From NCBI GenBank assembly GCA_002784505.1, contig PFLF01000043.1, forward strand, positions 1 through 40,853: 40,853 bases of DNA. The letters are read 5' to 3'. This document shows positions 25,580-40,132 of the stretch, piece by piece; within the stretch, counting starts at the first letter, position 1, and the number at the start of each line of letters is the position of its first letter. The notes below the pieces were generated by a model, which was given only the letters and a program-made list of their open reading frames with translations, did not search any database and had not been told where the DNA came from. The DNA comes from Candidatus Roizmanbacteria bacterium CG_4_10_14_0_8_um_filter_39_9. Its GTDB lineage: Bacteria; Patescibacteriota; Microgenomatia; UBA1406; GWC2-37-13. A program made the position numbers and the translations under genes.

Positions 25580-25619
25580 TTTGGCCCATTATAGCAGATA
25601 TAATTATTATAATGATTAT

Positions 25620-26393
25620 ATGAAATCACTCTCCCTTCTCATGATTACAAAAAATTCAGGCGAACTAATAGACAGCTCCTTAAAGTCTGTTTTGGGACTG
25701 ATTGACGAGATTGTAATCGTTGATGACTATTCATCTGACAATACGCGAGCAATTGCAAAAAAATATAAGGCAATGATTTATAAAAGAAGTAGTGAGAATT
25801 TGGGAAAACAGCGCGCCTACGGATTATCTAAATGTAAAGGTGAATGGATATTGATGCTGGATGCTGATGAAATAATTTCTCAAGAATTAAAGAATGAAAT
25901 TATTTCTGTCGTCTGTCGTCAGTTATCAGTCGTCGGAAACATAAGCGGTTACTACATTCCCTATCAAAATCATTTTTTGGGTAAACCGATTAATTATGGG
26001 GGCGAAAATTATCGGATACTTCGTCTATTTAAAAGAGCCAGCACACACATAACTGAGAATGTAGTACACGAACATGTTATTGTGAACGGAAAAGTAGGGT
26101 TTTTAACCCATAAAATATTCCATTATTCATACCGCAATCTGTCTCAGACTTATAAAAAATTTGCAGATTATGCGCGTCGTGAAGCATATCGAAAATTGTC
26201 TCAAGGAGAAAGGACCTCATTCAAAAAATTAATCCTCTATCCTATTCACATGTTCTGGGCAAGATATGTCAAAGATCGCGGATTCAAGGATTATGGACTG
26301 CGGATTTTACTCGATATTGGATTTGCGTATATGGAGTTTTTAATCTACTTTTTGATGCTGTTTGACCTGAAGAAATATAAAAAATCCGATTAA
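25620..26393 (+). CDS. Family 2 glycosyltransferase
   Basis: 'LSLLMITKNSGELI', 'IVIVDDYSSDNT', 'MLDADE' and 'VHEHV...HYSY' resemble the KdtX/WaaE-like GT2 layout. The protein is a paralogue of 32841-33635. The ATG at 25620 is preferred over the track's TTG at 25581. Confidence 0.85.
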   Translation: MKSLSLLMITKNSGELIDSSLKSVLGLIDEIVIVDDYSSDNTRAIAKKYKAMIYKRSSENLGKQRAYGLSKCKGEWILMLDADEIISQELKNEIISVVCRQLSVVGNISGYYIPYQNHFLGKPINYGGENYRILRLFKRASTHITENVVHEHVIVNGKVGFLTHKIFHYSYRNLSQTYKKFADYARREAYRKLSQGERTSFKKLILYPIHMFWARYVKDRGFKDYGLRILLDIGFAYMEFLIYFLMLFDLKKYKKSD

Positions 26394-29760: not shown

Positions 29761-31700
29761 AAATTGGATTTGTCATTGTCCTCTATAAAACGCCAGTTCA
29801 TGAAATGGTTCGACTTAAAAAGCAAATAGAAGCTCTTGGCTTTAAAGATTACCAGATATATTTTATTGACAATACTGCAAATGGTCATGGATATGCACAA
29901 GGGGTAAATGAAGGAATCAGACGTGCCCAAAAAAACAAGTGTGAGCTGTTTATTGTTGCCAACGCTGACATTTCATTTGAAAAACTATCTTCGCAAGATC
30001 TTATGGAGGGGTATAAGCATTTTGATATGTGGGGGCTCGCGATGAAACAACAGAACGTCGTATATTATGGAGGAGAAATAGACAAATGGCGCATGAGCGG
30101 CGGACTTATTATCGTTAAACCAACACATAGGTTTCAAAAGGCTGATTTTGTATGTGGTTCACTTATGCTTATCAAAAGTGAGCTTGTTGAAAAAATTGGA
30201 TTTCTGGATGAGTCTTACTTTATGTATTACGAAGATACGGAATACGGATACCGCTGCAACAAAAATGGGATGCGTGCGGGGATTGATACAAAACACACGT
30301 ATTTGCATTTTGAGATCTCAGTTCACAATGCGCTTAAAGATCTGTGGCTTGCAAAAAACAGACTCCGTTTTTTGGCAAGTTACGGAAGCCCCTTTCAAAT
30401 TATTCGAGAGATTATACGTACTCCAAAAACGCTCTGGGAAGAAAAAAAACTCATCTGGAATACATTTCAAAGGTCGTCGTTTCTCGTCAACTTTTTCAGT
30501 ATGAACATTTCAGCGTTTTTGGGAAAAGTATTTAATTTTATTTTGTTTCTCATCCTCATTCGCAACCTTACCGTTGCTGAATATGGAATTTACACACTCG
30601 TTTGGGCTCATGTATCCATATTCGGGCCGCTTGTTGATTTTGGTACCACTTCATATGGTATGGTATATTTGCCGAGCGAAAAAAAAGATAGGATAAACTC
30701 GTTATTCTCACTACGCCTCATTCTCTCACTAACCATATTTATTTTAACGGTGCTGCTGGCAGTCGTTTTTAAATATGAACACAAAATACTTATTTATATA
30801 TTCTTCACATCATTCGTGATATTTTTTAATATGGCATCGGGCACTTACCTTATTCTTACATCCATTGCGCAAAAACTTGCAAGAACTTCAGCACTATCCA
30901 TCCTAACTAACGCGATTATGATTGGAGGTATAATTTTGAGCATTACGGTTTTTCAAAAGGTAAGGTATATGTTTGCAACTATTGCAGGTTTCTACGTGCT
31001 CTATACGCTTATCTACTCCGCATTAGTTTCTCGATTGATCAAGAAGATCCACATATTTTTTGATTATCGAAACTGGATCCAGATCATGAAAAAATCGTAT
31101 ATATTTGTCTTGATAGGTTTTTTTGCCGGCATATATTTTAAAATCGATGTGCTGATGCTTTCATTTTTGAAAGGCAAAGAAGCAGTTGGAGTATATTCTT
31201 CAGGATATAAATTTCTCGAAGCGCTTATACTTATTGCGTCAAGCTATAACACCGTTGCAACTCCCATACTTGCAAAAGGAATTATTGATGGGAAGCAACG
31301 ACTGAGACTTACCGTGCGAAAACATCTTGTATTGTTGGGCATTATTGGTTTTGGAGTAGTACTTGGAACCTATCTTATTGGACCATACTTTTTTCCTATT
31401 ATCTTAAAAGGAAATTTTAAAGAAGCAGCCGGCGTAATACGCATAATTATTTGGGCACTTCCTTTCATACTTTTAAATTCTGTCTTCATGAATCTTTTGT
31501 ATGTTTCTGGACGGCCACAGATGGTAATAGGTCTTTTTATCACCCTATCAGTAATAAACATCGTTTCAAATCTTCTTCTTATTCCTCATTTTTCGTACAT
31601 CGCGTCGTCATATATTACCGTAGGGTGTGAAATCACAAGCCTGTTTATCCTTCTTTACCTGGTCTTTATAAGTAATAGAAAAAAAATCTTATATGATTAA
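29757..31700 (+). CDS. Fusion of a GT2 rhamnosyltransferase-like domain with a Wzx/MOP-type polysaccharide flippase
   Basis: The N-terminal ~230 aa carry 'FVIVLYKTP', 'DNTANGHGYAQGVNEGI', 'VANADI', 'GSLMLIKSELVEKIGFLDESYFMYYEDTEYGYR'. About 12 TM helices with a Polysacc_synt-like pattern follow ('LIRNLTVAEYGIYTL', 'VGVYSSGYKF'). The start overlaps the upstream stop (ATGA). Confidence 0.75.
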   Translation: MKIGFVIVLYKTPVHEMVRLKKQIEALGFKDYQIYFIDNTANGHGYAQGVNEGIRRAQKNKCELFIVANADISFEKLSSQDLMEGYKHFDMWGLAMKQQNVVYYGGEIDKWRMSGGLIIVKPTHRFQKADFVCGSLMLIKSELVEKIGFLDESYFMYYEDTEYGYRCNKNGMRAGIDTKHTYLHFEISVHNALKDLWLAKNRLRFLASYGSPFQIIREIIRTPKTLWEEKKLIWNTFQRSSFLVNFFSMNISAFLGKVFNFILFLILIRNLTVAEYGIYTLVWAHVSIFGPLVDFGTTSYGMVYLPSEKKDRINSLFSLRLILSLTIFILTVLLAVVFKYEHKILIYIFFTSFVIFFNMASGTYLILTSIAQKLARTSALSILTNAIMIGGIILSITVFQKVRYMFATIAGFYVLYTLIYSALVSRLIKKIHIFFDYRNWIQIMKKSYIFVLIGFFAGIYFKIDVLMLSFLKGKEAVGVYSSGYKFLEALILIASSYNTVATPILAKGIIDGKQRLRLTVRKHLVLLGIIGFGVVLGTYLIGPYFFPIILKGNFKEAAGVIRIIIWALPFILLNSVFMNLLYVSGRPQMVIGLFITLSVINIVSNLLLIPHFSYIASSYITVGCEITSLFILLYLVFISNRKKILYD

Positions 31701-32853
31701 TCCTTCGACTTCGCTCAGGATAAAAGTTGCTTTTGTCAGAGGCGCATTTCTCAATAATTTTGAAGGTCAGAATTATGCCATTAAGGGCGTAACTGGTTTT
31801 GGATCGCTGCACTCGATTCATTCACAGTTGCCGTTTCCGGTGATCCGACTTCCCAGTTTGTCAGACTACAATCTGATAGGAAGATGGGGGAGAGCCATTG
31901 CCAACCGCACCCTTGGAGATATCCAAAATCTATTTGGTTTGGAGAAATATGCATCCCAGTTTGACATTTTTCATACCGCTGATCCCCATTATTATTATTC
32001 TTATCAACTTGCAAAACTGAGATCAGAAAACAAAATCAAATATCTTCTTGTTACTTCATGGGAAACGATTCCTTTTAATAACGAAACGGTTGAGGCAAAA
32101 AAAAGAAAAAAATATTTTGTTTTGAAGTATGCGGACCATTTTTTATGCTATACGGAGCGGGCAAAGGAGTGCCTTATTTTGGAGGGTGTAAGTGAAAACA
32201 AAATATCGGTTATAAGGTTGGGGGTGGATTTGCAAAATTTCAAATTTCAAATAACAAATAACAAATCAATAACAAAATCCAAATCACCAATTCAAATATT
32301 GTTTGTCGGGAGGTTGGTTGAGGAGAAGGGGGTAATGGACGCTTATAAAGTATTCCGAAATGTCAAATTGCAAATGACAAATCACAAATCAATCACAAAT
32401 ATCAAATTGCAAATAGTTGGGGAGGGGCCGCTGAAACAAACACTCCTCAGGAAAATTGAACAGGATCATTTTCAGAATTGTGTTTCGATTGAAACAAAAA
32501 AGTACGAAGAAATGCCAAAAATATATCAATATGCAGATATTGTACTTCTTCCCTCCAAAAGGACTAATACCTGGGAGGAACAGTACGGCATGGTATTTGT
32601 TGAGGCAATGGCATCAGGTCTACCAATAGTTACTTATGATACTGGAACTATAACAGAAATTATCAGTTCGGAAGTGATAAAAGAAGAGGGAGATATAGAC
32701 GGATTGGCAAACAGCCTCATTAATTTGATAAAGGATAAAAAAGCGCGCTTAAAACTTGGTACAATGGGAAGAGTACGGGCGGAAAAATTTTTTGACAGCA
32801 AAAAATCAGCCACGGAAATAAAAAATCTTTATATTTCGTTATGCAAAAGATAA
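31693..32853 (+). CDS. GT4-family glycosyltransferase carrying three in-frame repeat-derived insertions
   Basis: 'ILFVGRLVEEKGV', 'LQIVGEGPLKQ', 'LPSKRTNTWEEQYGMVFVEAMASGLPIVTYDTG' are present. See the repeat features at 32231, 32358 and 32660. Confidence 0.85.
   Translation: MINPSTSLRIKVAFVRGAFLNNFEGQNYAIKGVTGFGSLHSIHSQLPFPVIRLPSLSDYNLIGRWGRAIANRTLGDIQNLFGLEKYASQFDIFHTADPHYYYSYQLAKLRSENKIKYLLVTSWETIPFNNETVEAKKRKKYFVLKYADHFLCYTERAKECLILEGVSENKISVIRLGVDLQNFKFQITNNKSITKSKSPIQILFVGRLVEEKGVMDAYKVFRNVKLQMTNHKSITNIKLQIVGEGPLKQTLLRKIEQDHFQNCVSIETKKYEEMPKIYQYADIVLLPSKRTNTWEEQYGMVFVEAMASGLPIVTYDTGTITEIISSEVIKEEGDIDGLANSLINLIKDKKARLKLGTMGRVRAEKFFDSKKSATEIKNLYISLCKR
32231..32300 (+). repeat. A/C-rich NNCAAAT heptamer module A, in frame inside the GT4 gene
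   Basis: The DNA reads TTCAAAT TTCAAAT AACAAAT AACAAAT CAATAACAAAATCCAAATCACCAATTCAAAT. It encodes 'NFKFQITNNKSITKSKSPIQI' in the loop between 'GVDL' and 'ILFVGR'. Confidence 0.7.
32358..32415 (+). repeat. A/C-rich NNCAAAT heptamer module B, in frame inside the GT4 gene
   Basis: The DNA reads GTCAAAT TGCAAAT GACAAAT CACAAAT CAAT CACAAAT ATCAAAT TGCAAAT. A 13-nt direct repeat, TCAAATTGCAAAT, occurs at 32363-32375 and 32402-32414, 39 nt apart. The module encodes 'NVKLQMTNHKSITNIKLQI'. Confidence 0.7.
32660..32680 (+). repeat. 21-nt REP-like unit inside the GT4 coding sequence
   Basis: TTATCAGTTCGGAAGTGATAA equals the first 14 plus the last 7 nt of the 39-nt REP at 13681. Its 7 codons are read as 'IISSEVI'. 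Confidence 0.7.
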
Positions 32854-33635
32854 CCAGCATCATTCTCACGAAGAATGAAGAAACAAATATTGAAAGGGCA
32901 ATCAAGTCCTTGGCATTTTGTGATGAAATTATTGTGGTGGATGATGGATCGACGGACATGACGGTTGAAAAATGTCAAATGACAAATCACCAATCACAAA
33001 TCAATTCTAAAATTCAAATTATTAAACATGAATCAAACGGCGACTTTGCGACGCAGAGAAACTGGGCGATGAAGCAAGCTTCGTACGAATGGATACTGTT
33101 TCTGGATGCAGATGAAGAGGTATCGGATGAGCTTCAAAAAGAGATCATTTCGTCGATTGGCGCCCCTGAGAATGATACTAGTTCCTACTTCTTGAAAAGA
33201 AGGGATTATTTTTGGAGCCAGGAGTTAAAGTACGGCGAAATATTAAAACTGAGAAATCGAGGTCTCATAAGGCTTATTAAAAAAGGAAGCGGAAAATGGG
33301 GGGGGAAAGTACATGAGGAGTTCATCCCTGATCGGCCACTGGTACACCGCGTAGGTGGCCCTTTGGCCTACATAAATCATTATCCGCATCCCACACTTAA
33401 AGAATTTATTTCTGATATAAATGTCTACAGCGGTATCAGAGCGCAGGAACTACATGAAGCACATGTTCAGGCAGGCGCTTTTGAGATGGTTATATATCCT
33501 GTCTTTAAATTTATTTTAAATTATTTTGTCTATCTGGGCTTTTTTGATGGTCCACAAGGATTCGTATATTCATTTCTGATGAGTTTTCATTCTTTTCTTG
33601 TGCGGGCTAAGTTGTATCAGTTAAATACAGATTAA
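32841..33635 (+). CDS. Family 2 glycosyltransferase (paralogue of 25620-26393) with an in-frame heptamer module
   Basis: 'TSIILTKNEETNI', 'IIVVDDGSTDMT', 'FLDADE', 'GKVHEEF...INHYPH' are present. The start overlaps the upstream gene by 13 nt. Confidence 0.85.
   Translation: MQKITSIILTKNEETNIERAIKSLAFCDEIIVVDDGSTDMTVEKCQMTNHQSQINSKIQIIKHESNGDFATQRNWAMKQASYEWILFLDADEEVSDELQKEIISSIGAPENDTSSYFLKRRDYFWSQELKYGEILKLRNRGLIRLIKKGSGKWGGKVHEEFIPDRPLVHRVGGPLAYINHYPHPTLKEFISDINVYSGIRAQELHEAHVQAGAFEMVIYPVFKFILNYFVYLGFFDGPQGFVYSFLMSFHSFLVRAKLYQLNTD
32969..33022 (+). repeat. A/C-rich NNCAAAT heptamer module C, in frame inside the GT2 gene
   Basis: The DNA reads AAATGTCAAAT GACAAAT CACCAAT CACAAAT CAATTCTAAAATTCAAAT. 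It encodes 'KCQMTNHQSQINSKIQI'. The paralogue at 25620 is about 9 aa shorter at exactly this loop ('DNTRAIAKKYKAMIY'). Confidence 0.7.
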
Positions 33636-33648
33636 ACAATCATAATCT

Positions 33649-34818
33649 ATGATAATTTTGTTTCTCTACTACGCAAGCACATTTCTTTTTTTACTCGGTC
33701 AGTTGGGAAGGATGTCGTTTCTCAATCAGCACATCAATATGTATTTTTACGAAATACCCTTTGTATTTCTTTTGGTTGGATTATTTTTTAAATATAAATT
33801 TGAGCCGCTCAGGTACTTTGCAAAGGTCACCATTCCATTAGGAATTTTTTCTTTTTTTATGTTGTTTGGGTTACAACTAAATTCAAACTTGTATCAACCT
33901 CTTGAAAACGCAGTAGCGCTTCTGTATTACTTCAGGCTTTTGACCTACTTGTTTTCAATTCCCTACATAATCTATTATTTTATGACTGAAGTACGCAGTG
34001 TAAGGCATTTACAAAGAGGAATAATGATTATATCGTGCATAACGATTATATCTGCCTTTATACAGTATACTCTTTATCCAAATTTAAGGAATTTACTATA
34101 TCTGGGATGGGACCCACATTTATACAGAGTTTTTGGAGTTTATTTTGAACCGTATTTGGCCGCAGCTGCATTTGGTTTATTTTTTTACTATTTACTTGAG
34201 TTGCACAGTTCTCATAACATATTCAAATATATAAAATATGCGCTGATTGGCCTGAGTTCTGTATTGTTAGGTCTCACATTCTCGAGAATTGCCTATATAG
34301 CTTTTGCGATCGTAACAGTTCTCTATTTAGTATTGAAAAAAAAATGGTTATACATGGGATTATTTCTCATTATGTTTGGTGTGGTTATTGCTCTTATCCC
34401 GAAGCCAGAGGGAGTCGGAATAAATTTGCTTCGTACCTTTTCAATTTTTACCCGGATTGACAATGCAAAACAGGGCGTCGATATCTGGAGGAAAAATCCA
34501 TATTTTGGCGTAGGATATAACCGGGTAGGCTTTGCAAGAGGTGAAAATAGAACAGATATCTATACAGAAGCATCGCATGCCGCATCATCGTTTCATTCCA
34601 GCTTTATTACCATTCTTGCCGCGACTGGGGGAATAGGTTTTTTATTATTCCTGTTTGTTTTATATTCTTTATTCTCTCTTTCATTTCTTTCGGGAATTCT
34701 TCTTGTGTTTATTTCACTGATTTCATTCGGAGATAATGCTCTTCTTCATCCTTTTATTCTATTTTTGTTGATGCAGTTTATAGCAGCTTCGTATGTCAGT
34801 CATCCTTTGCATAAGTGA
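33649..34818 (+). CDS. O-antigen ligase/polymerase-like (Wzy_C) membrane protein
   Basis: The protein has about 10 TM helices. 'LTFSRIAYIAFAIV' and the periplasmic-loop motif 'EASHAASSFHSSFITILAATGGIGF' are typical of the O-antigen ligase family. Confidence 0.7.
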   Translation: MIILFLYYASTFLFLLGQLGRMSFLNQHINMYFYEIPFVFLLVGLFFKYKFEPLRYFAKVTIPLGIFSFFMLFGLQLNSNLYQPLENAVALLYYFRLLTYLFSIPYIIYYFMTEVRSVRHLQRGIMIISCITIISAFIQYTLYPNLRNLLYLGWDPHLYRVFGVYFEPYLAAAAFGLFFYYLLELHSSHNIFKYIKYALIGLSSVLLGLTFSRIAYIAFAIVTVLYLVLKKKWLYMGLFLIMFGVVIALIPKPEGVGINLLRTFSIFTRIDNAKQGVDIWRKNPYFGVGYNRVGFARGENRTDIYTEASHAASSFHSSFITILAATGGIGFLLFLFVLYSLFSLSFLSGILLVFISLISFGDNALLHPFILFLLMQFIAASYVSHPLHK

Positions 34819-35506
34819 CCGTGATTGTTTTTGATTCTGTGTTTCCAACAACATCTTCGGCAACAATTTCAATTTTATTTTCACCTTCTGACAATTTATA
34901 GAGCTGTTGAAAGACTCCCTGAGCATCAACAACCGCGGGTTGGCCGTTGATACGGATAAAGGTTTCCTTATCGGTTTTGCCCGCAATCTTGATTTCCTGT
35001 TTTGAAGATTTTGAATTATCTGAAGGTTCAGTTATTTCAAGATTCGGCTTCTCCGTTTTTAAAACTACGGTAAAGATACGAGATTTTTTAGTTGTCTTTC
35101 CGCTTTTCGACTTCGCGATAACATAAACAGTATTTTCTCCTTTTTCAAGGCCCGAAATCTCCTCAGAAAATACATCTCCCACCACTTGGGCATCCGTCAT
35201 CCTTTCACTATTAACGTAGATTTCAACCTGATCAAAATTTACCGTACTTCCTGAGACAAGTAATCTTGCACTGCTGGTTGCAGGAGGGAGAGGATCAATA
35301 TTGAGGCTTGTCAAGACATTATCACTAATTTCAGTCGTGACTTTTGAAGAGGGAGAGTTTGCAAGTTGGTTTAAAAATAACGATCCATTAACCAACAGTT
35401 TAAAACCAAAAGTAAATAAAAAAACAATAAAGCCAATGGTAAGTGCAACTACCAAAAATAATTGATAGGTGAATTGTTTTTGTCTGTGTTTTTCCAGTCT
35501 TGACAT
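34796..35506 (-). CDS. Membrane-anchored protein with two Ig-like (Big-type) domains
   Basis: The N-terminal TM is 'LFLVVALTIGFIVFLFTFGF'. Two beta-sandwich-like repeats end in 'GENTVYVIAKSKSGKT' and 'GENKIEIVAEDVVGNTESKTITV'. Confidence 0.55.
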   Translation of the reverse strand: MSRLEKHRQKQFTYQLFLVVALTIGFIVFLFTFGFKLLVNGSLFLNQLANSPSSKVTTEISDNVLTSLNIDPLPPATSSARLLVSGSTVNFDQVEIYVNSERMTDAQVVGDVFSEEISGLEKGENTVYVIAKSKSGKTTKKSRIFTVVLKTEKPNLEITEPSDNSKSSKQEIKIAGKTDKETFIRINGQPAVVDAQGVFQQLYKLSEGENKIEIVAEDVVGNTESKTITVTYAKDD

Positions 35507-35509
35507 ATG

Positions 35510-35582
35510 AGCCGACGATCGGAGTCGAACCGACGACCTGCTGTTTACGATACAGCTGCTCTACCAACTGAGCTACATCGGC
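35510..35582 (-). tRNA. tRNA-Thr (anticodon CGT)
   Basis: The minus strand reads GCCGATG TA GCTC AGTTGGTA GAGC A GCTGT ATCGTAA ACAGC AGGTC GTCGG TTCGACT CCGAT CGTCGGC T. All four stems pair, with two G-U pairs. CCA is not encoded. Confidence 0.9.
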
Positions 35583-35602
35583 TTACCGGTCGATTAATTA
35601 TA

Positions 35603-36796
35603 TCAGGCAGAGTGTTCAATTATGAACTTTTTAATGTCAACGTCGGAATTGTTTATCCGAATAGCTTTTTTCAAGATGATATCTTTCCATTTTCGGGCTT
35701 TTTCCAAAGATTCCATTTGACTATTTAAAACAAATTCTTTCATATGCTTTTTAACGAAATCATCATATATTATGGTGCATGTGTAGTCATCGTCCCAAAT
35801 GCCGAAGTCCGGTTCTGTCCCATACTGCTTAATGTCATCAAGCATACACAAATAAACCTGTATTCCTCCCAAGATGTCCAATTTGATCTGTTCAAGAAGG
35901 TTCTTTCTCTTTAAATGAGAAAGTTTTTCTACGAGAACTACTCGAGTAAGGTTTTCCAGTCTTTTTGCAGCCACTCTTCCTTCTTTATAGTATTTTGAGA
36001 GGGGATTCCAATCCTTGGTTCCGCTCATAAAAGTTGCAAATCCGTTTTTTTTCAGGTTTTTAAAATGGAAGTTACCCTCATCATCGATATCCTCCGGCTT
36101 CAGGTGAATGACCGTCGGATATTTACTTCTGATATAGTTTGACGAATGCATATTTGTATAATGCAAAATGTATGTTTGGTATAAGGATAAGTCAAGTCGC
36201 GTAGTGCACAAATCGAAAACAAGAGGAAATTCTCCCAGTTTAACATCTCCGCCCATATGGCCGGCTTTGCGGACAAAAATAATTGAACTGTCCATAGCCT
36301 TTCCGAAAAGGACTGATTGATTCATGTTTACATAAGGGTCACTATCGGAATGAAGCACATATGATACCGGAATGAGTTTTTTTAGTTTTTCAAAATCAAA
36401 TCCAACGGAATAAAACGTCTTGTTGACAAGATCAAATTGCCAAACACCGGGGGGATTCTCAAGAAATGGGCTTACAAAAATTGCACAGTCAAGTTGAATA
36501 TTATATTTTTGTACAACGTGTACGATAAACAATGGTCCGAGTGAATGGCCGACAAAGCAAAGTTTGTCTTTTCCCTCAAGAGTGGATAAAATCTTCTCAA
36601 ATGTTTTAAACCAATTCTGAAGGCTTTGATTTTTAAGAGTCTGGTGAGGACCTTTTTTTGTCATCGCACCCCAGTCTTCTACCGGAAACTTCGGGACGAT
36701 CACTGTTTGACCAAGTTCCTCAAGTTTGCGTTTCAACTGAGGAAACCAATTCTCATCAGGACTTCCAAATGAGCCGTGAAACAGAACGAATTTCAT
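35603..36796 (-). CDS. YdeN/RBBP9-like serine hydrolase fused to a ~200-aa C-terminal domain of unknown function
   Basis: 'MKFVLFHGSFGSPDENWFPQLKRKLEELG' and 'FVGHSLGP' (GxSxG) are present, and the N-terminal half is a paralogue of the next gene. I cannot place the C-terminal half ('...PDFGIWDDDYTCTIIYDD...'). Confidence 0.65.
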   Translation of the reverse strand: MKFVLFHGSFGSPDENWFPQLKRKLEELGQTVIVPKFPVEDWGAMTKKGPHQTLKNQSLQNWFKTFEKILSTLEGKDKLCFVGHSLGPLFIVHVVQKYNIQLDCAIFVSPFLENPPGVWQFDLVNKTFYSVGFDFEKLKKLIPVSYVLHSDSDPYVNMNQSVLFGKAMDSSIIFVRKAGHMGGDVKLGEFPLVFDLCTTRLDLSLYQTYILHYTNMHSSNYIRSKYPTVIHLKPEDIDDEGNFHFKNLKKNGFATFMSGTKDWNPLSKYYKEGRVAAKRLENLTRVVLVEKLSHLKRKNLLEQIKLDILGGIQVYLCMLDDIKQYGTEPDFGIWDDDYTCTIIYDDFVKKHMKEFVLNSQMESLEKARKWKDIILKKAIRINNSDVDIKKFIIEHSA

Positions 36797-36813
36797 AAGG
36801 TAAGTATATCAAA

Positions 36814-37389
36814 TTAGAGCCTTAATTTAACCCGGTCCAATAGCTCAGGAAACTGAGTGAACTTTGGATATGTTGCTACATTAAAATGTCCTGCATTCTT
36901 AAATATATGAATTTCAGCCTTCAACCAATCTGCAATAAATTGTCCTTCGGACACAGGGATCACATCATCGGTTGATTGAAAAACTTCAACATGCCTCACA
37001 AGTTGACGCAGTCTTTTCCATAAGTAGGGCTTTGCTTGAAATGAGTCATATTCAGAGTATATGTCAGGTCTCCACTGATCGTAGTCAACGAATGGACCCA
37101 CCAAAAAAAGACTATCGATTCTAACTCCTAGCTTCGGAAGAAGTTGAAATGTGAAAGAACATCCTCGACTATGAGCGACGAAAATCGTTTTATCATTGAC
37201 TAATGTTTTATATTTATCAAATTCATTCAACCAGTCATCTAAGCTATGTCCCATTTGATCATTTGTTGGAATTTTAAAACGGGGGACAGTAACGCTTTCA
37301 CCCTGTTTTTCTAATTCTGCCTTTAACCACGGAAACCAATTTTCCTGAGGGTTGCCGTAACTGCCATGAATGATAAAAATAGTTCTCAT
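36814..37389 (-). CDS. YdeN/RBBP9-like alpha/beta serine hydrolase
   Basis: 'MRTIFIIHGSYGNPQENWFPWLKAELEKQG', nucleophile elbow 'VAHSRGC', and C-terminal 'DDVIP...NAGHFN' (Asp/His). Confidence 0.7.
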   Translation of the reverse strand: MRTIFIIHGSYGNPQENWFPWLKAELEKQGESVTVPRFKIPTNDQMGHSLDDWLNEFDKYKTLVNDKTIFVAHSRGCSFTFQLLPKLGVRIDSLFLVGPFVDYDQWRPDIYSEYDSFQAKPYLWKRLRQLVRHVEVFQSTDDVIPVSEGQFIADWLKAEIHIFKNAGHFNVATYPKFTQFPELLDRVKLRL

Positions 37390-37390
37390 A

Positions 37391-38284
37391 TTAAAACATC
37401 GTTTCTAACCAGTCAGAAATAGCTTTTATCAATCTACCTTCTGTGCCTATGTAACTGTGATTAGCTTCTTTTATAACTTTAACTGTGAGATCTTTTATTT
37501 TTTTTGATTTTAATACCGCCACAATCGCTTTAACAGATTTTGACTTGCAGGAATGATTGATAAATGTGTCATTTTCGCCAAAGACAACAAGTGATTTTTC
37601 CTTGATATCTTCAAAAGCATTCCAGTTTTTTGAATGAGGATTATGATAGGGATGAAGCGTTCCGGCTCCGTCTTCAACAAGATATCCTGAATACGTTGTT
37701 GCTGACATTGGGCAAATGATGCTCAATTCTGGTGGCAACAGATCCCTACCCTTTCCGTCCTTTATGAGCTTTTTTATTGTTTGATCAATTTCACCGTATT
37801 TTTGATCTCCGTATTTGATCAACATATATCCAGCGTCATTTTGAGGGGATAAATGAATTTGTCCTACGACCTGAGGATTTTTTGCTTTGTATTGATAGTA
37901 CAGAACTTTTTGAGCCCCTAAGCTGTGTCCCTGAAGGATAATTTTTTTTATTCCTTGTTTGGTAAGAAAATCAATCCATGCCTGAATATCTAAAATGCAA
38001 TCTTCAAATGTTTCAAACCCTCCTCCGCATGGGAACCATTCAATCTTTCCTTTTACGTGTTTTCTGATATCCGCGTACACGCCATGGCCTCGGGTATTAA
38101 CCGTTAGAAATGAAATCTTTTTTTTTGAAAGAAGGTGCCCTTCGAGCTCTATAAACTTATGTGTATAAAAGTCACCAGCAGTGCCATGAATATGCAGTAC
38201 AGCAATATCACTTTTGCCTCTTACAAAAAAACCCGCAAGCTCCAGTCCATCTGAAGTAATTGTTCTGACAAGTTGACCCTCCAT
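37391..38284 (-). CDS. Alpha/beta-fold hydrolase (family unresolved)
   Basis: 'VLHIHGTAGDFYTH', 'ILQGHSLGAQKV' (GxSxG), 'FGENDTF' and '...ANHSY' are present. The stop lies 1 nt from the next gene's start. Confidence 0.7.
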   Translation of the reverse strand: MEGQLVRTITSDGLELAGFFVRGKSDIAVLHIHGTAGDFYTHKFIELEGHLLSKKKISFLTVNTRGHGVYADIRKHVKGKIEWFPCGGGFETFEDCILDIQAWIDFLTKQGIKKIILQGHSLGAQKVLYYQYKAKNPQVVGQIHLSPQNDAGYMLIKYGDQKYGEIDQTIKKLIKDGKGRDLLPPELSIICPMSATTYSGYLVEDGAGTLHPYHNPHSKNWNAFEDIKEKSLVVFGENDTFINHSCKSKSVKAIVAVLKSKKIKDLTVKVIKEANHSYIGTEGRLIKAISDWLETMF

Positions 38285-38357
38285 GGGAATATTCTAACAT
38301 CATACATTGTACAAAGCCACACATTTTTTTGTGTTACAGTCAGTAGAGCATAAATAA

Positions 38358-38386
38358 TGTTACAATATCGTATCAATAAGATATTG
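38358..38386 (+). promoter_or_regulatory. Candidate arsR-family promoter (extended -10 TGtTACAAT) overlapped by an inverted repeat (possible autoregulatory operator)
   Basis: TGTTACAAT lies at 38358-38366. CAATATC-N10-GATATTG lies at 38363-38386 and overlaps the -10. Confidence 0.4.
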
Positions 38387-38400
38387 AATAATATAAATAT

Positions 38401-38685
38401 ATGATCGGATGTTGCAGCCCCAAATCACTCAAGTTTTTCAAATCTATAAGCGATAAACATCGTCAATTAATCCTTGCGCTTTTGAAGGTACATAAGAGCC
38501 TTAATGCTTCCGAAATAAGAGAACACATTAAATTGTCTCAGCCAACCACTTCACACCATTTATCATTATTGACTCAAGCTGGGGCAATCGATGCGCAAAA
38601 GAAGGGGAAAGAAGTATTCTACTCACTTAAAACCCAAAATATATCTTCCTGCTGCCTCAGTTTTTTAAAAGATTTACTACATTAA
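38401..38685 (+). CDS. ArsR/SmtB-family metalloregulator with N- and C-terminal vicinal Cys pairs
   Basis: The winged-HTH segments are 'RQLILALL...LNASEIREHIKLSQPTTSHHLSLLTQAGAI...KGKEVFYSL'. Cys4-Cys5 ('GCCSP') and Cys84-Cys85 ('SSCCL') are present. There is no CxC in the alpha3 position. Confidence 0.8.
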   Translation: MIGCCSPKSLKFFKSISDKHRQLILALLKVHKSLNASEIREHIKLSQPTTSHHLSLLTQAGAIDAQKKGKEVFYSLKTQNISSCCLSFLKDLLH

Positions 38686-38696
38686 ATTCTGTAGTT

Positions 38697-38745
38697 ATCC
38701 CCGTGAAGACGGGGATCCAGTCTATATTCACACCTTCGCGGGAAT
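38697..38745. repeat. Pair of GC-rich 20-nt palindromes (ATCCCCGT-GAAG-ACGGGGAT and a degenerate ATTCACAC-CTTC-GCGGGAAT)
   Basis: An 8-bp G/C-rich stem with a 4-nt loop lies 11 nt after the arsR stop. A second, imperfect unit lies 9 nt downstream. The composition contrasts with the AT-rich surroundings. The first unit may act as a terminator stem but has no U-tract. Confidence 0.5.
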
Positions 38746-38785
38746 GACGAGTATCAACGTATCGTGTTTGACATTGTTTTACCTA

Positions 38786-38815
38786 TTGACATATTGAAAT
38801 GTATCGATGTATAAT
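38786..38815 (+). promoter_or_regulatory. Near-consensus sigma70 promoter for the Cys-rich miniprotein gene
   Basis: TTGACA (38786-38791), an 18-nt spacer and TATAAT (38810-38815). A second TTGACA lies at 38768. The SD AGGAGGTGAAA follows. Confidence 0.55.
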
Positions 38816-38840
38816 CAAAACGTGATAGGAGGTGAAACAT

Positions 38841-39014
38841 ATGCATTTTTTTAAACATCTGAAAGGAATTAAGGTGACGGTTGAGAATAAGGGTGAAGAA
38901 CTTCTTATTCACGCAAAAGGATCAAAAGAAGATGTTGCCAACTTGGAAAAAAAGCTGGGTGCAATCAAAGAACTTTGTGGAGGTTGTTGCGGTGAAGAAG
39001 GAGATTGCTGCTAA
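38841..39014 (+). CDS. Small protein (57 aa) with a Cys-rich C-terminal tail (candidate metal-binding or metallochaperone-like protein)
   Basis: The ATG at 38841 sits 7 nt after GGAGGTG; the track's GTG at 38832 lies inside the SD. The tail is 'CGGCCGEEGDCC', five Cys in the last 12 residues. A promoter and a terminator flank the ORF. Confidence 0.6.
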   Translation: MHFFKHLKGIKVTVENKGEELLIHAKGSKEDVANLEKKLGAIKELCGGCCGEEGDCC

Positions 39015-39023
39015 ATGAAATAA

Positions 39024-39798: not shown

Positions 39799-40132
39799 AA
39801 TTAGTTAAGAAAGTGAGCTCGTTGGTGAACAGAATTAGAACTTTTTACCAGCTGTCCACCAAGAAGTATTATATACCAAACTTTGATAGATAGATTATTT
39901 TCTTTCAAACCCTATGACTGATAAGTTTATCAGATTTTCTAGCACCCCAAGAATAATTTTTTATGTATAAAAACTAAAATTACAACAAAGATCAAACTTA
40001 TTTGATCAAAACTTCATTAAAATCAGTAACATTGGCGACTACGGTGAAAAAAGTGAATCTAAAAAGAAAATAAATCGCCGTAGCCGCCACAACCCACTCA
40101 TCCTCAAAAATTTTTGAGTCGTGCAAACAACA

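Follow-up and report, generated by a model that had tools for sequence, protein, structure and literature searches.

The subject of this analysis is a set of three short in-frame DNA modules, A, B and C, which lie in two adjacent glycosyltransferase genes of Candidatus Roizmanbacteria bacterium CG_4_10_14_0_8_um_filter_39_9, on contig PFLF01000043.1 (the window, meaning the whole stretch of 40,853 nt that was analysed). The reading given most weight, at a probability of roughly 55%, is that the modules belong to a dispersed, heptamer-phased DNA repeat family of ~55-62 nt, kept in coding DNA just in insertion-tolerant, stop-free, hydrophilic-reading contexts and remodelled by slippage and point mutation. 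The proposed family design has a fixed order: a unit N-AAATNN, three units CAAATNN, the irregular CAAAT-[A/C]-AAT-NN, and two or three more CAAAT-like units. The genes and modules are as follows; loci retrieved from other genomes are cited by L numbers.

31693-32853, + strand: GT4-family glycosyltransferase gene, an open reading frame of 386 aa (Pfam PF00534, 1.1e-30, and PF13439), carrying modules A and B
32841-33635, + strand: GT2-family glycosyltransferase gene, an open reading frame of 264 aa (Pfam PF00535, 2.7e-22), carrying module C
32230-32291, + strand: module A, a 62-nt repeat copy whose CAAAT-like units run on to ~32300; about residues 180-202 (QNFKFQITNNKSITKSKSPIQI)
32353-32414, + strand: module B, a 62-nt repeat copy; about residues 221-241 (FRNVKLQMTNHKSITNIKLQI)
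32965-33026, + strand: module C, a 62-nt repeat copy encoding VEKCQMTNHQSQINSKIQIIK between the DDGSTD motif and the next strand
32363-32375 and 32402-32414, + strand: the 13-nt direct repeat TCAAATTGCAAAT in module B, two exact matches 39 nt apart

The modules and the loops that hold them

The pattern CAAATNNCAAATNNCAAAT, with up to two mismatches allowed, is matched 12 times in the window against a mean of 0.84 in shuffled sequence, and all 12 matches are on the + strand and confined to 32234-32291, 32357-32414 and 32969-33001. Among the A/C-rich arrays of the window, Tandem Repeats Finder gives period 7 or 14 only at the three module sites. A repeat search of the window recovers one gap-free 62-nt family with three copies, which are A, B and C, and none elsewhere in the window; with A as the reference, identity over the 62 nt is 79% (A/B), 76% (A/C) and 74% (B/C). 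A preliminary description of this DNA, made from the letters alone, had placed three heptamer modules in the GT4 and GT2 genes, and these searches find them there. Its 13-nt direct repeat in module B is likewise present, and a recount agrees that two of the six reading frames of B lack stops; modules A and C have one stop-free frame of six each, the frame in use.

Other parts of that description need revision. Its unit, NNCAAAT, has the right length of 7 nt, but CAAATNN describes it better, and the fourth CAAAT is followed by an irregular unit, CAAATCAAT-NN. Each window module has one N-AAATNN unit, three CAAATNN units, the irregular CAAAT-C-AAT-NN and then further CAAAT units, with a variable dinucleotide that changes from unit to unit; at most two identical units stand next to each other (AAATTTC twice, CAAATAA twice). 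The three modules had been described as sharing one phase; in the gap-free alignment, module base 1 falls at codon position 2 in A and B and at codon position 3 in C. The likeness of the encoded peptides is real for B and C but arises from an offset of one unit (7 nt): both modules have the same ordered variable dinucleotides, GT, GA and CA, and differ by one unit lost and one gained.

The modules are strand-asymmetric (1-4 G per 54-70 nt), and their flanks have only an upstream TT-N3 in common. Neither strand of any module is predicted to fold as RNA (-4 to -6 kcal/mol, z -0.7 to +0.9), the window repeat search finds no inverted arm or partner for any of them, and no target-site duplication surrounds A, B or C, the 13-nt direct repeat being internal to B and part of its heptamer run. 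With inverted termini, target duplication, partner arm and fold all missing, the suggested resemblance to a miniature inverted-repeat transposable element (MITE) falls away for the window copies. As an aside, A-AAT-TTC in the zero frame of module A (32237-32243) fits the X-XXY-YYZ slippery pattern of -1 ribosomal frameshifting; no downstream structure is predicted for it, and the fit is taken as a coincidence.

The positions of the modules were compared across 80 orthologous loci, giving 84 GT4 frames and a GT2 alignment of 64 orthologues. Site A, from LGVD to ILFVGR, measures 22 residues in the window versus 15-16 in most orthologues, and site B, from EKG to the G-x-G strand, 25 versus 19. 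Most of the 64 GT2 orthologues show a 9-column gap at module C, of which the window fills eight columns; the solved relative GmaR (22ao) has an 8-residue gap at this position. The GT2 paralogue at 25581-26393 is, by manual count, nine residues shorter between DD and QR, much as had been noted. The short loops are encoded by ordinary non-repetitive DNA (for example in L154), and the deepest-branching GT4 sequences have the short form. Because most orthologues have shorter, non-repetitive loops at the same sites, the modules are derived, and the description of them as in-frame additions in loops holds.

A module spans ~18-20 codons, for a net gain over the commonest orthologue length of ~6-7 (A), 6 (B) and 8 (C) residues. 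The modules also encode conserved flanks, among them the invariant Phe183 and the I-Q-I opening of the next beta-strand; the 3' end of all three consists of these I-Q-I codons. In the AlphaFold model of the GT4 protein (mean predicted local distance difference test score, pLDDT, 87.8), module A lies between strands E171-173 and E200-205, and module B runs from the end of helix H214-229 across loop 230-236 into the first part of strand E237-242. The modules are partly in low-confidence loops: pLDDT drops below 50 at residues 189-193 in A. Going by the known topology of Rossmann-like folds, these alpha-to-beta loops would be on the face of the sheet opposite the substrate sites. The modules would give a longer, partly flexible surface loop there, away from the active site, and they need not have a catalytic or regulatory role.

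The design in other genomes

Copies elsewhere had been proposed as a test of the idea, and many were found. A genome scan (one genome per species, four CAAAT units at 7-nt spacing, at least 120 DNA stretches) separates two classes: (i) perfect arrays of a single unit, of which Nostoc has (CAAATGA)n and Acidobacteria (CAAATCG)n as examples, and (ii) imperfect arrays with a common layout of N-AAATNN, three CAAATNN, CAAATAAAT-NN and further CAAAT units. Among the matches listed, the continuation AAAT-NN-CAAAT occurs in 7 of 25 imperfect arrays against 0 of 67 perfect ones. Thirteen copies from different other lineages align without any gap. A model built from these 13 copies alone, with no window sequence (R1), finds B at 32358-32412 (E 6.1e-11), C at 32970-33024 (E 1.2e-07) and A at 32235-32289 (E 2.5e-07) in the window, each at full length and gap-free; the next match has an E-value of 0.2. 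At the level of sequence, many genomes contain the design in gap-free form. The G+C fraction of the hosts lies between 0.32 and 0.65, and that of the module is ~0.22. Codon bias was rejected as the cause, since the module stays at ~22% G+C within hosts of 51-65%.

All three window copies read CAAAT-C-AAT, while 13 of 13 copies from elsewhere read CAAAT-A-AAT; a C variant private to every copy in the window points to copying or homogenisation within this genome. The Roizmanbacteria-like loci L002, L128, L159 and L161 have another variant in common, CAAACAAAT; this variant, and the dinucleotide order common to B and C, also speak for copying inside genomes.

Within the Candidate Phyla Radiation (CPR), the design is read in frame in genes for LeuRS-like (L019), SecA (L052), ArgRS-like (L083 and L109, at the same site), Mur-ligase-like (L117), FemAB-like (L091) and TatD-like (L014) proteins, the names coming from motif reading, with SecA confirmed; GT4 site A of L173, L128 and L002 carries it as well. 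These copies occupy loops of variable length in conserved proteins. The A/C-rich strand is always the sense strand in them, and all three codon phases are used, a finding that lends no support to a fixed peptide tag. Phase differences at site A need not mean independent insertions, as slippage by one unit shifts the phase by one and could produce the same pattern locally. Of 98 Patescibacteria homologues of SecA, 80 have a loop of 18 residues between GRGxDI and GGLxV, compared with 42 residues in L052. No clean empty site was found for this copy, whose closest homologues are 73-75% identical.

Outside genes the design takes a different form. Non-coding copies are found on contigs of Clostridia, Myxococcales, Desulfobacterales, Chthoniobacterales, Nitrospirota, Cloacimonadota and Bacteroidota, and inverted pairs, in other phyla and in intergenic CPR DNA, form palindromes of 107-178 nt. 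Seven of nine tested non-CPR loci, together with the CPR Doudnabacteria locus L056, have an inverted pair (palindrome 114-178 nt). Such palindromic pairs occur in at least six named non-CPR phyla, genomes of 63-65% G+C included, and on the Roizmanbacteria-like contig L161 one fills the spacer between htpX-like and asnB-like genes. Many copies are near contig ends, as expected of multi-copy repeats. The two strands of a palindrome fold about equally, which marks these as DNA-level inverted repeats; a strand-specific RNA hairpin in the other phyla was rejected on this ground. A link to phages was also dropped: in a scan of viral contigs for the module core, most matches were unrelated (CAAATAA)n runs that follow stop codons, with only L206 and L229 module-like.

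A more tentative proposal, and one that is on balance doubtful, is that all of this is a single undescribed element dispersed across phyla: a ~55-nt heptamer-phased arm, present as intergenic palindromic pairs in at least six further phyla and as single sense-strand arms in frame in CPR genes that are essential or make surface glycans. Were it true, the copying mechanism would have to work without a transposase or through single-stranded DNA, and CPR proteins would have a general route for gaining loop insertions.

Slippage, copying and the competing explanations

Of the long simple repeats in many bacteria, those with a heptanucleotide unit are the most over-represented; slippage tied to the polymerase footprint has been proposed, and repeat units inside genes are expected to be multiples of three (PMC4692102, PMC4679880). 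The lineage of the window follows the first of these trends. In 69 non-redundant related loci (739 kb), scanned at lags 3-15 for regions with at least 23 of 28 matches, lag 7 yields 40 regions and every other lag 0-7, the 7 at lag 14 being the same arrays; arrays of period 7 outnumber those of any other period at least fivefold. Thirty of the 40 regions are inside open frames of at least 150 codons, in many cases at the loops that hold the window modules, and such frames make up 91% of the DNA, so these non-triplet arrays are just mildly depleted from genes. Three exact CAAAT at 7-nt spacing occur 18 times and at other spacings 0-1 times (869 kb, before removal of near-identical loci).

Near-identical strains of this lineage can differ in the number of units in a heptamer array. 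Locus L145 (6534-6587) has six copies of (GACACTA) where L152 and L151, 98.5% identical, have two. The four-unit difference is the sole indel in ~9.5 kb; it is intergenic, just 5' of the GT2 start codon, and the array is a candidate expression-tuning repeat.

The loops occupied by the window modules hold other repeats in relatives. At site B these are:

L141: (AAATCTC)x4
L173: (AAATGTC)x4
L157: AAAAGTT-type
L128: GTAACGT-type
L178: AAACATG-type

GT2 orthologues have at least three sites of heptamer arrays: after DDxSxD, after the DADE helix and after GKVHE. Site B also provides a graded series. L141 (10644-10700) has a plain array, L132 (5210-5290) an AAATCTC-like array with a 21-nt net gain that holds the G+C-rich mini-hairpin CCTGCCTCGCTGGCAGGCAGG, and L137 (666-765) a duplication of the heptamer-plus-hairpin unit, for loop lengths of 26, 33 and 40 residues. 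At site A of L133 (~1985-2015), a 30-nt perfect palindrome, GACAAAATGACGCGATCGCGTCATTTTGTC, is in frame and adds eight residues to the basal loop; it resembles a miniature Rickettsia-type palindromic insert, and L137 and L144 have imperfect versions of it. L171 and L130 have A/C arrays on either side of a G+C-rich core.

Further in-frame heptamer families are seen in related genomes (L164 11700-11748, L133 12498-12548, L138 2144-2186, L165 4943-4989), among them (AAAAGTC)n, read as KVKSQKS repeats, and a (GGAAGTT)-type, read as LEVGNWK repeats. Each related genome seems to prefer its own heptamer unit, at several sites.

In the favoured reading of a dispersed repeat family, copies would arrive, or be overwritten, by copying, whether through gene conversion, template switching or some mobilising enzyme. 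Selection would then keep those copies that are in insertion-tolerant alpha-to-beta loops, in a stop-free orientation and frame, and that read as hydrophilic K/Q/N/S/T/I peptides. Slippage in 7-nt steps and point mutation would remodel them, with just net multiples of 3 nt surviving in genes; remodelling of this kind would explain why the same orthologue loops hold different heptamers at different lengths.

The main rival dispenses with copying altogether. Each module would be a degenerate heptanucleotide microsatellite, grown by replication slippage from A-rich loop codons, and the likeness between modules would be convergence. Much of the above suits it: polymerase slippage is the cause given for the bacterial heptamer excess (PMC4692102, PMC4679880), period 7 prevails in this lineage, near-identical strains differ in copy number, orthologue loops hold the five different units listed, the site B lengths rise in 7-aa steps, and the basal loops already have TTTAAA- or AAAAAT-like seeds. 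It nevertheless appears rather unlikely. A lone 7-nt step breaks the frame, so that growth in essential genes would need 21-nt events. Convergence leaves unexplained the irregular unit after exactly four units in many phyla, the window-specific C variant in all three copies, and a block of 22% G+C within genomes of 51-65% G+C.

Several points weigh against the dispersed family itself. The scan's demand for four CAAAT units pre-selects part of the design, and R1 gives generic perfect CAAAT arrays 22-40 bits over its first half; what its E-values measure is therefore chiefly the heptamer run, and the basis for membership is the irregular unit that the copies share. No mobilisation mechanism was found: the modules have no terminal inverted repeats, target duplication or adjacent transposase, and the sole Y1 transposase seen (a Y1_Tnp open reading frame in the strain variant L237) has no module nearby. 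The three copies in this genome, of which ~45 kb was examined, are all within 800 nt. The modules overlap codons of conserved flanks and add just 6-8 residues, which fits replacement or in-situ growth as well as insertion. No pair of empty and filled sites was recovered among close relatives, and no insertion event is directly seen.

It is improbable that the peptides are what is maintained. Under this explanation, K/Q/N/S-rich peptides with 7-residue periodicity would be kept for a role in the protein, for example as a basic loop that faces the membrane or binds a partner. The basal site A loops are already basic (FKPAKKNETNRFT), the 3' end of each module provides the I-Q-I start of a beta-strand, and the sense orientation is invariably the hydrophilic one. 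Yet copies of the module occur in every one of the three codon phases, the majority of orthologues lack it, its DNA design recurs in unrelated proteins as well as in non-coding palindromes, and pLDDT is low in module A.

A role for the nucleic acid is likewise very unlikely. Unstructured, G-poor and 7-nt-phased RNA or DNA could serve as a binding array for a conserved single-strand-binding protein of the cold-shock, S1 or Rho type, and so tune translation or transcription in the operon. In its favour are a design conserved across phyla with two variable positions left free, and modules without RNA structure (z ~0); cold-shock proteins, which bind about one heptamer each, have been raised for other heptamer repeats (PMC4679880). 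Against it, the equal folding of both palindrome strands points to a DNA-level repeat and not to an RNA signal, and the modules contain no promoter-like sites and match no Rfam family. An antisense promoter, considered for the minus-strand TTGACA in B and C, was discarded on the same absence of promoter-like sites within the modules. At the gathering threshold, Rfam finds only tRNAs and one tmRNA in the window and 14 loci; a permissive scan of four hairpin loci gives only sub-threshold matches to plant microRNA precursors, as generic long hairpins do.

A contingency locus depends on a long perfect tract and shows on/off alleles. The least credible explanation is that gain and loss of units switch both glycosyltransferase genes on and off to vary the cell surface: a 7-nt unit is no multiple of three, the genes act on surface polysaccharide in an episymbiotic lineage, the orthologues L141, L173, L133 and L164 have four or five perfect in-frame units and the polymorphic (GACACTA) array is just 5' of the GT2 start (L145 vs L152), but the window modules have at most two identical neighbouring units, they are identical in three assemblies of the population (consensus sequences), 84 of 84 GT4 frames are intact, and the same design is present in LeuRS, SecA and ArgRS, where an off state would be lethal. 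The working switch suggested for the window is thus not borne out. The modules resemble the contingency loci in glycosyltransferase genes of Haemophilus, Neisseria and Campylobacter in placing non-triplet repeats in surface-glycan genes; they differ in that the window tracts are degenerate and invariant in the three assemblies. Long perfect tracts do occur in the orthologues L141, L173 and L164.

Among the other known systems that come close are the Rickettsia palindromic elements (RPEs). These are short dispersed repeats, in frame in unrelated and often essential genes at positions the fold tolerates, in host-dependent bacteria with small genomes (PMC10969869). The earlier comparison with them is apt as an analogy, as repeat DNA is in frame inside genes in both cases, here in GT4, GT2, LeuRS-like, SecA, ArgRS-like, Mur-ligase-like and FemAB-like genes. 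The differences are that (i) RPEs are ~150 bp and palindromic, whereas the window modules are ~55-62 nt, one-armed, unstructured and heptamer-built, (ii) each RPE family encodes a conserved peptide, whereas the modules are read in all three phases, and (iii) the host range is not the same. Heptanucleotide simple sequence repeats (including the cyanobacterial short tandemly repeated repetitive sequences and the TAACTGA or GGGAATC repeats) have in common with the modules the head-to-tail 7-nt unit, the period-7 excess and copy-number change between strains (PMC4692102, PMC4679880), along with occasional inverted pairs and related units such as (CAAATGA)n in Nostoc. The reported ones are mostly intergenic runs of a single unit; the modules instead have a composite design, fixed but for its variable dinucleotides, and are read in frame within conserved genes. 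MITEs, repetitive extragenic palindromic (REP) sequences and REPINs are also small, non-autonomous and multi-copy, and the palindromic form (107-178 nt) looks like one of them; the window copies differ in having no inverted termini or target duplications, and no linked transposase or REP-associated tyrosine transposase was found.

The preliminary description had held that no standard feature type explains such an element. This is too broad with regard to the heptamer excess, which is already published (PMC4692102, PMC4679880), as are in-frame selfish repeats in the form of RPEs (PMC10969869). It stands for the module itself: no account was found of a non-triplet module of fixed design that is read in frame within conserved genes and takes a palindromic form elsewhere, and open-access text yielded nothing on heptamer repeats together with CPR bacteria.

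If the favoured reading is correct, part of the loop length variation and of the low-complexity K/Q/N/S loops of CPR proteins, essential ones included, would be written by a DNA-level repeat and not by protein-level selection. The Rickettsia phenomenon would then have a second and independent counterpart, with a non-triplet repeat that was not expected to be tolerable in genes. The unexplained heptanucleotide excess of bacteria would gain a sequence-defined family that can be traced across phyla. In GT-A and GT-B enzymes, SecA and aminoacyl-tRNA synthetases, the affected loops show where insertions are tolerated. For the annotation of metagenome-assembled genomes, peptides such as QITNxKSQI, and the hydrophobic FGIWDLEF-type peptides that the opposite arm encodes, should be treated as derived from the repeat. 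The palindromic forms also break assemblies.

Genomic setting and other putative small inserts

The neighbourhood is a surface-polysaccharide cluster of a CPR bacterium. Homologues of the GT4 protein come from Candidatus Roizmanbacteria and the Microgenomates group, the best being 65% identical, and related contigs keep the gene order methyltransferases, DUF2142, GT2, YfhO, GT4, flippase, GT4, GT2, Wzy. Three assemblies of the window population are identical over 30027-38821, modules included. The same population was otherwise recovered only as the short contigs L236, L237, L240 and L241; a genome walk through these added ~4 kb of new sequence and no extra module.

Two of the short contigs depart from the window near its end. 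L240 has 27 substitutions and seven small indels, all in 38822-39021, the last 200 nt of its match, the preceding 8.8 kb being identical; the sharp boundary is either a recombination edge or an assembly end effect. L237 (1-4360), from a sample that also holds the window population, is 99.7% identical over the shared 1.2 kb and diverges at window position 39886, past which come an open reading frame for a Y1 (IS200-like) transposase and then flavin reductase, acetyltransferase, Fic and HEPN genes. It is a structural variant adjoining the acyltransferase gene.

Two further putative inserts are present in the glycosyltransferase genes of the window. The GT4 protein starts MI-NPSTSLRI-KVAF versus MIKVAL in most orthologues; the extra 24 nt (31699-31722) are AATCCTTCGACTTCGCTCAGGATA, with complementary ends (ATCCT...AGGAT) and a TTCGAC...GCTCAGG core in common with the G+C-rich site A insert of L171, and P0010 and P0018 have a similar N-terminal extra. 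In the AT-rich GT2 gene, a G+C-rich mini-hairpin, GGCCAC-15 nt-GTGGCC (33334-33360), encodes part of PDRPLVHRVGGP at the 'GKVHEE' site, where the orthologues L138, L164 and L165 have heptamer arrays instead; it looks like a second kind of short in-frame insert.

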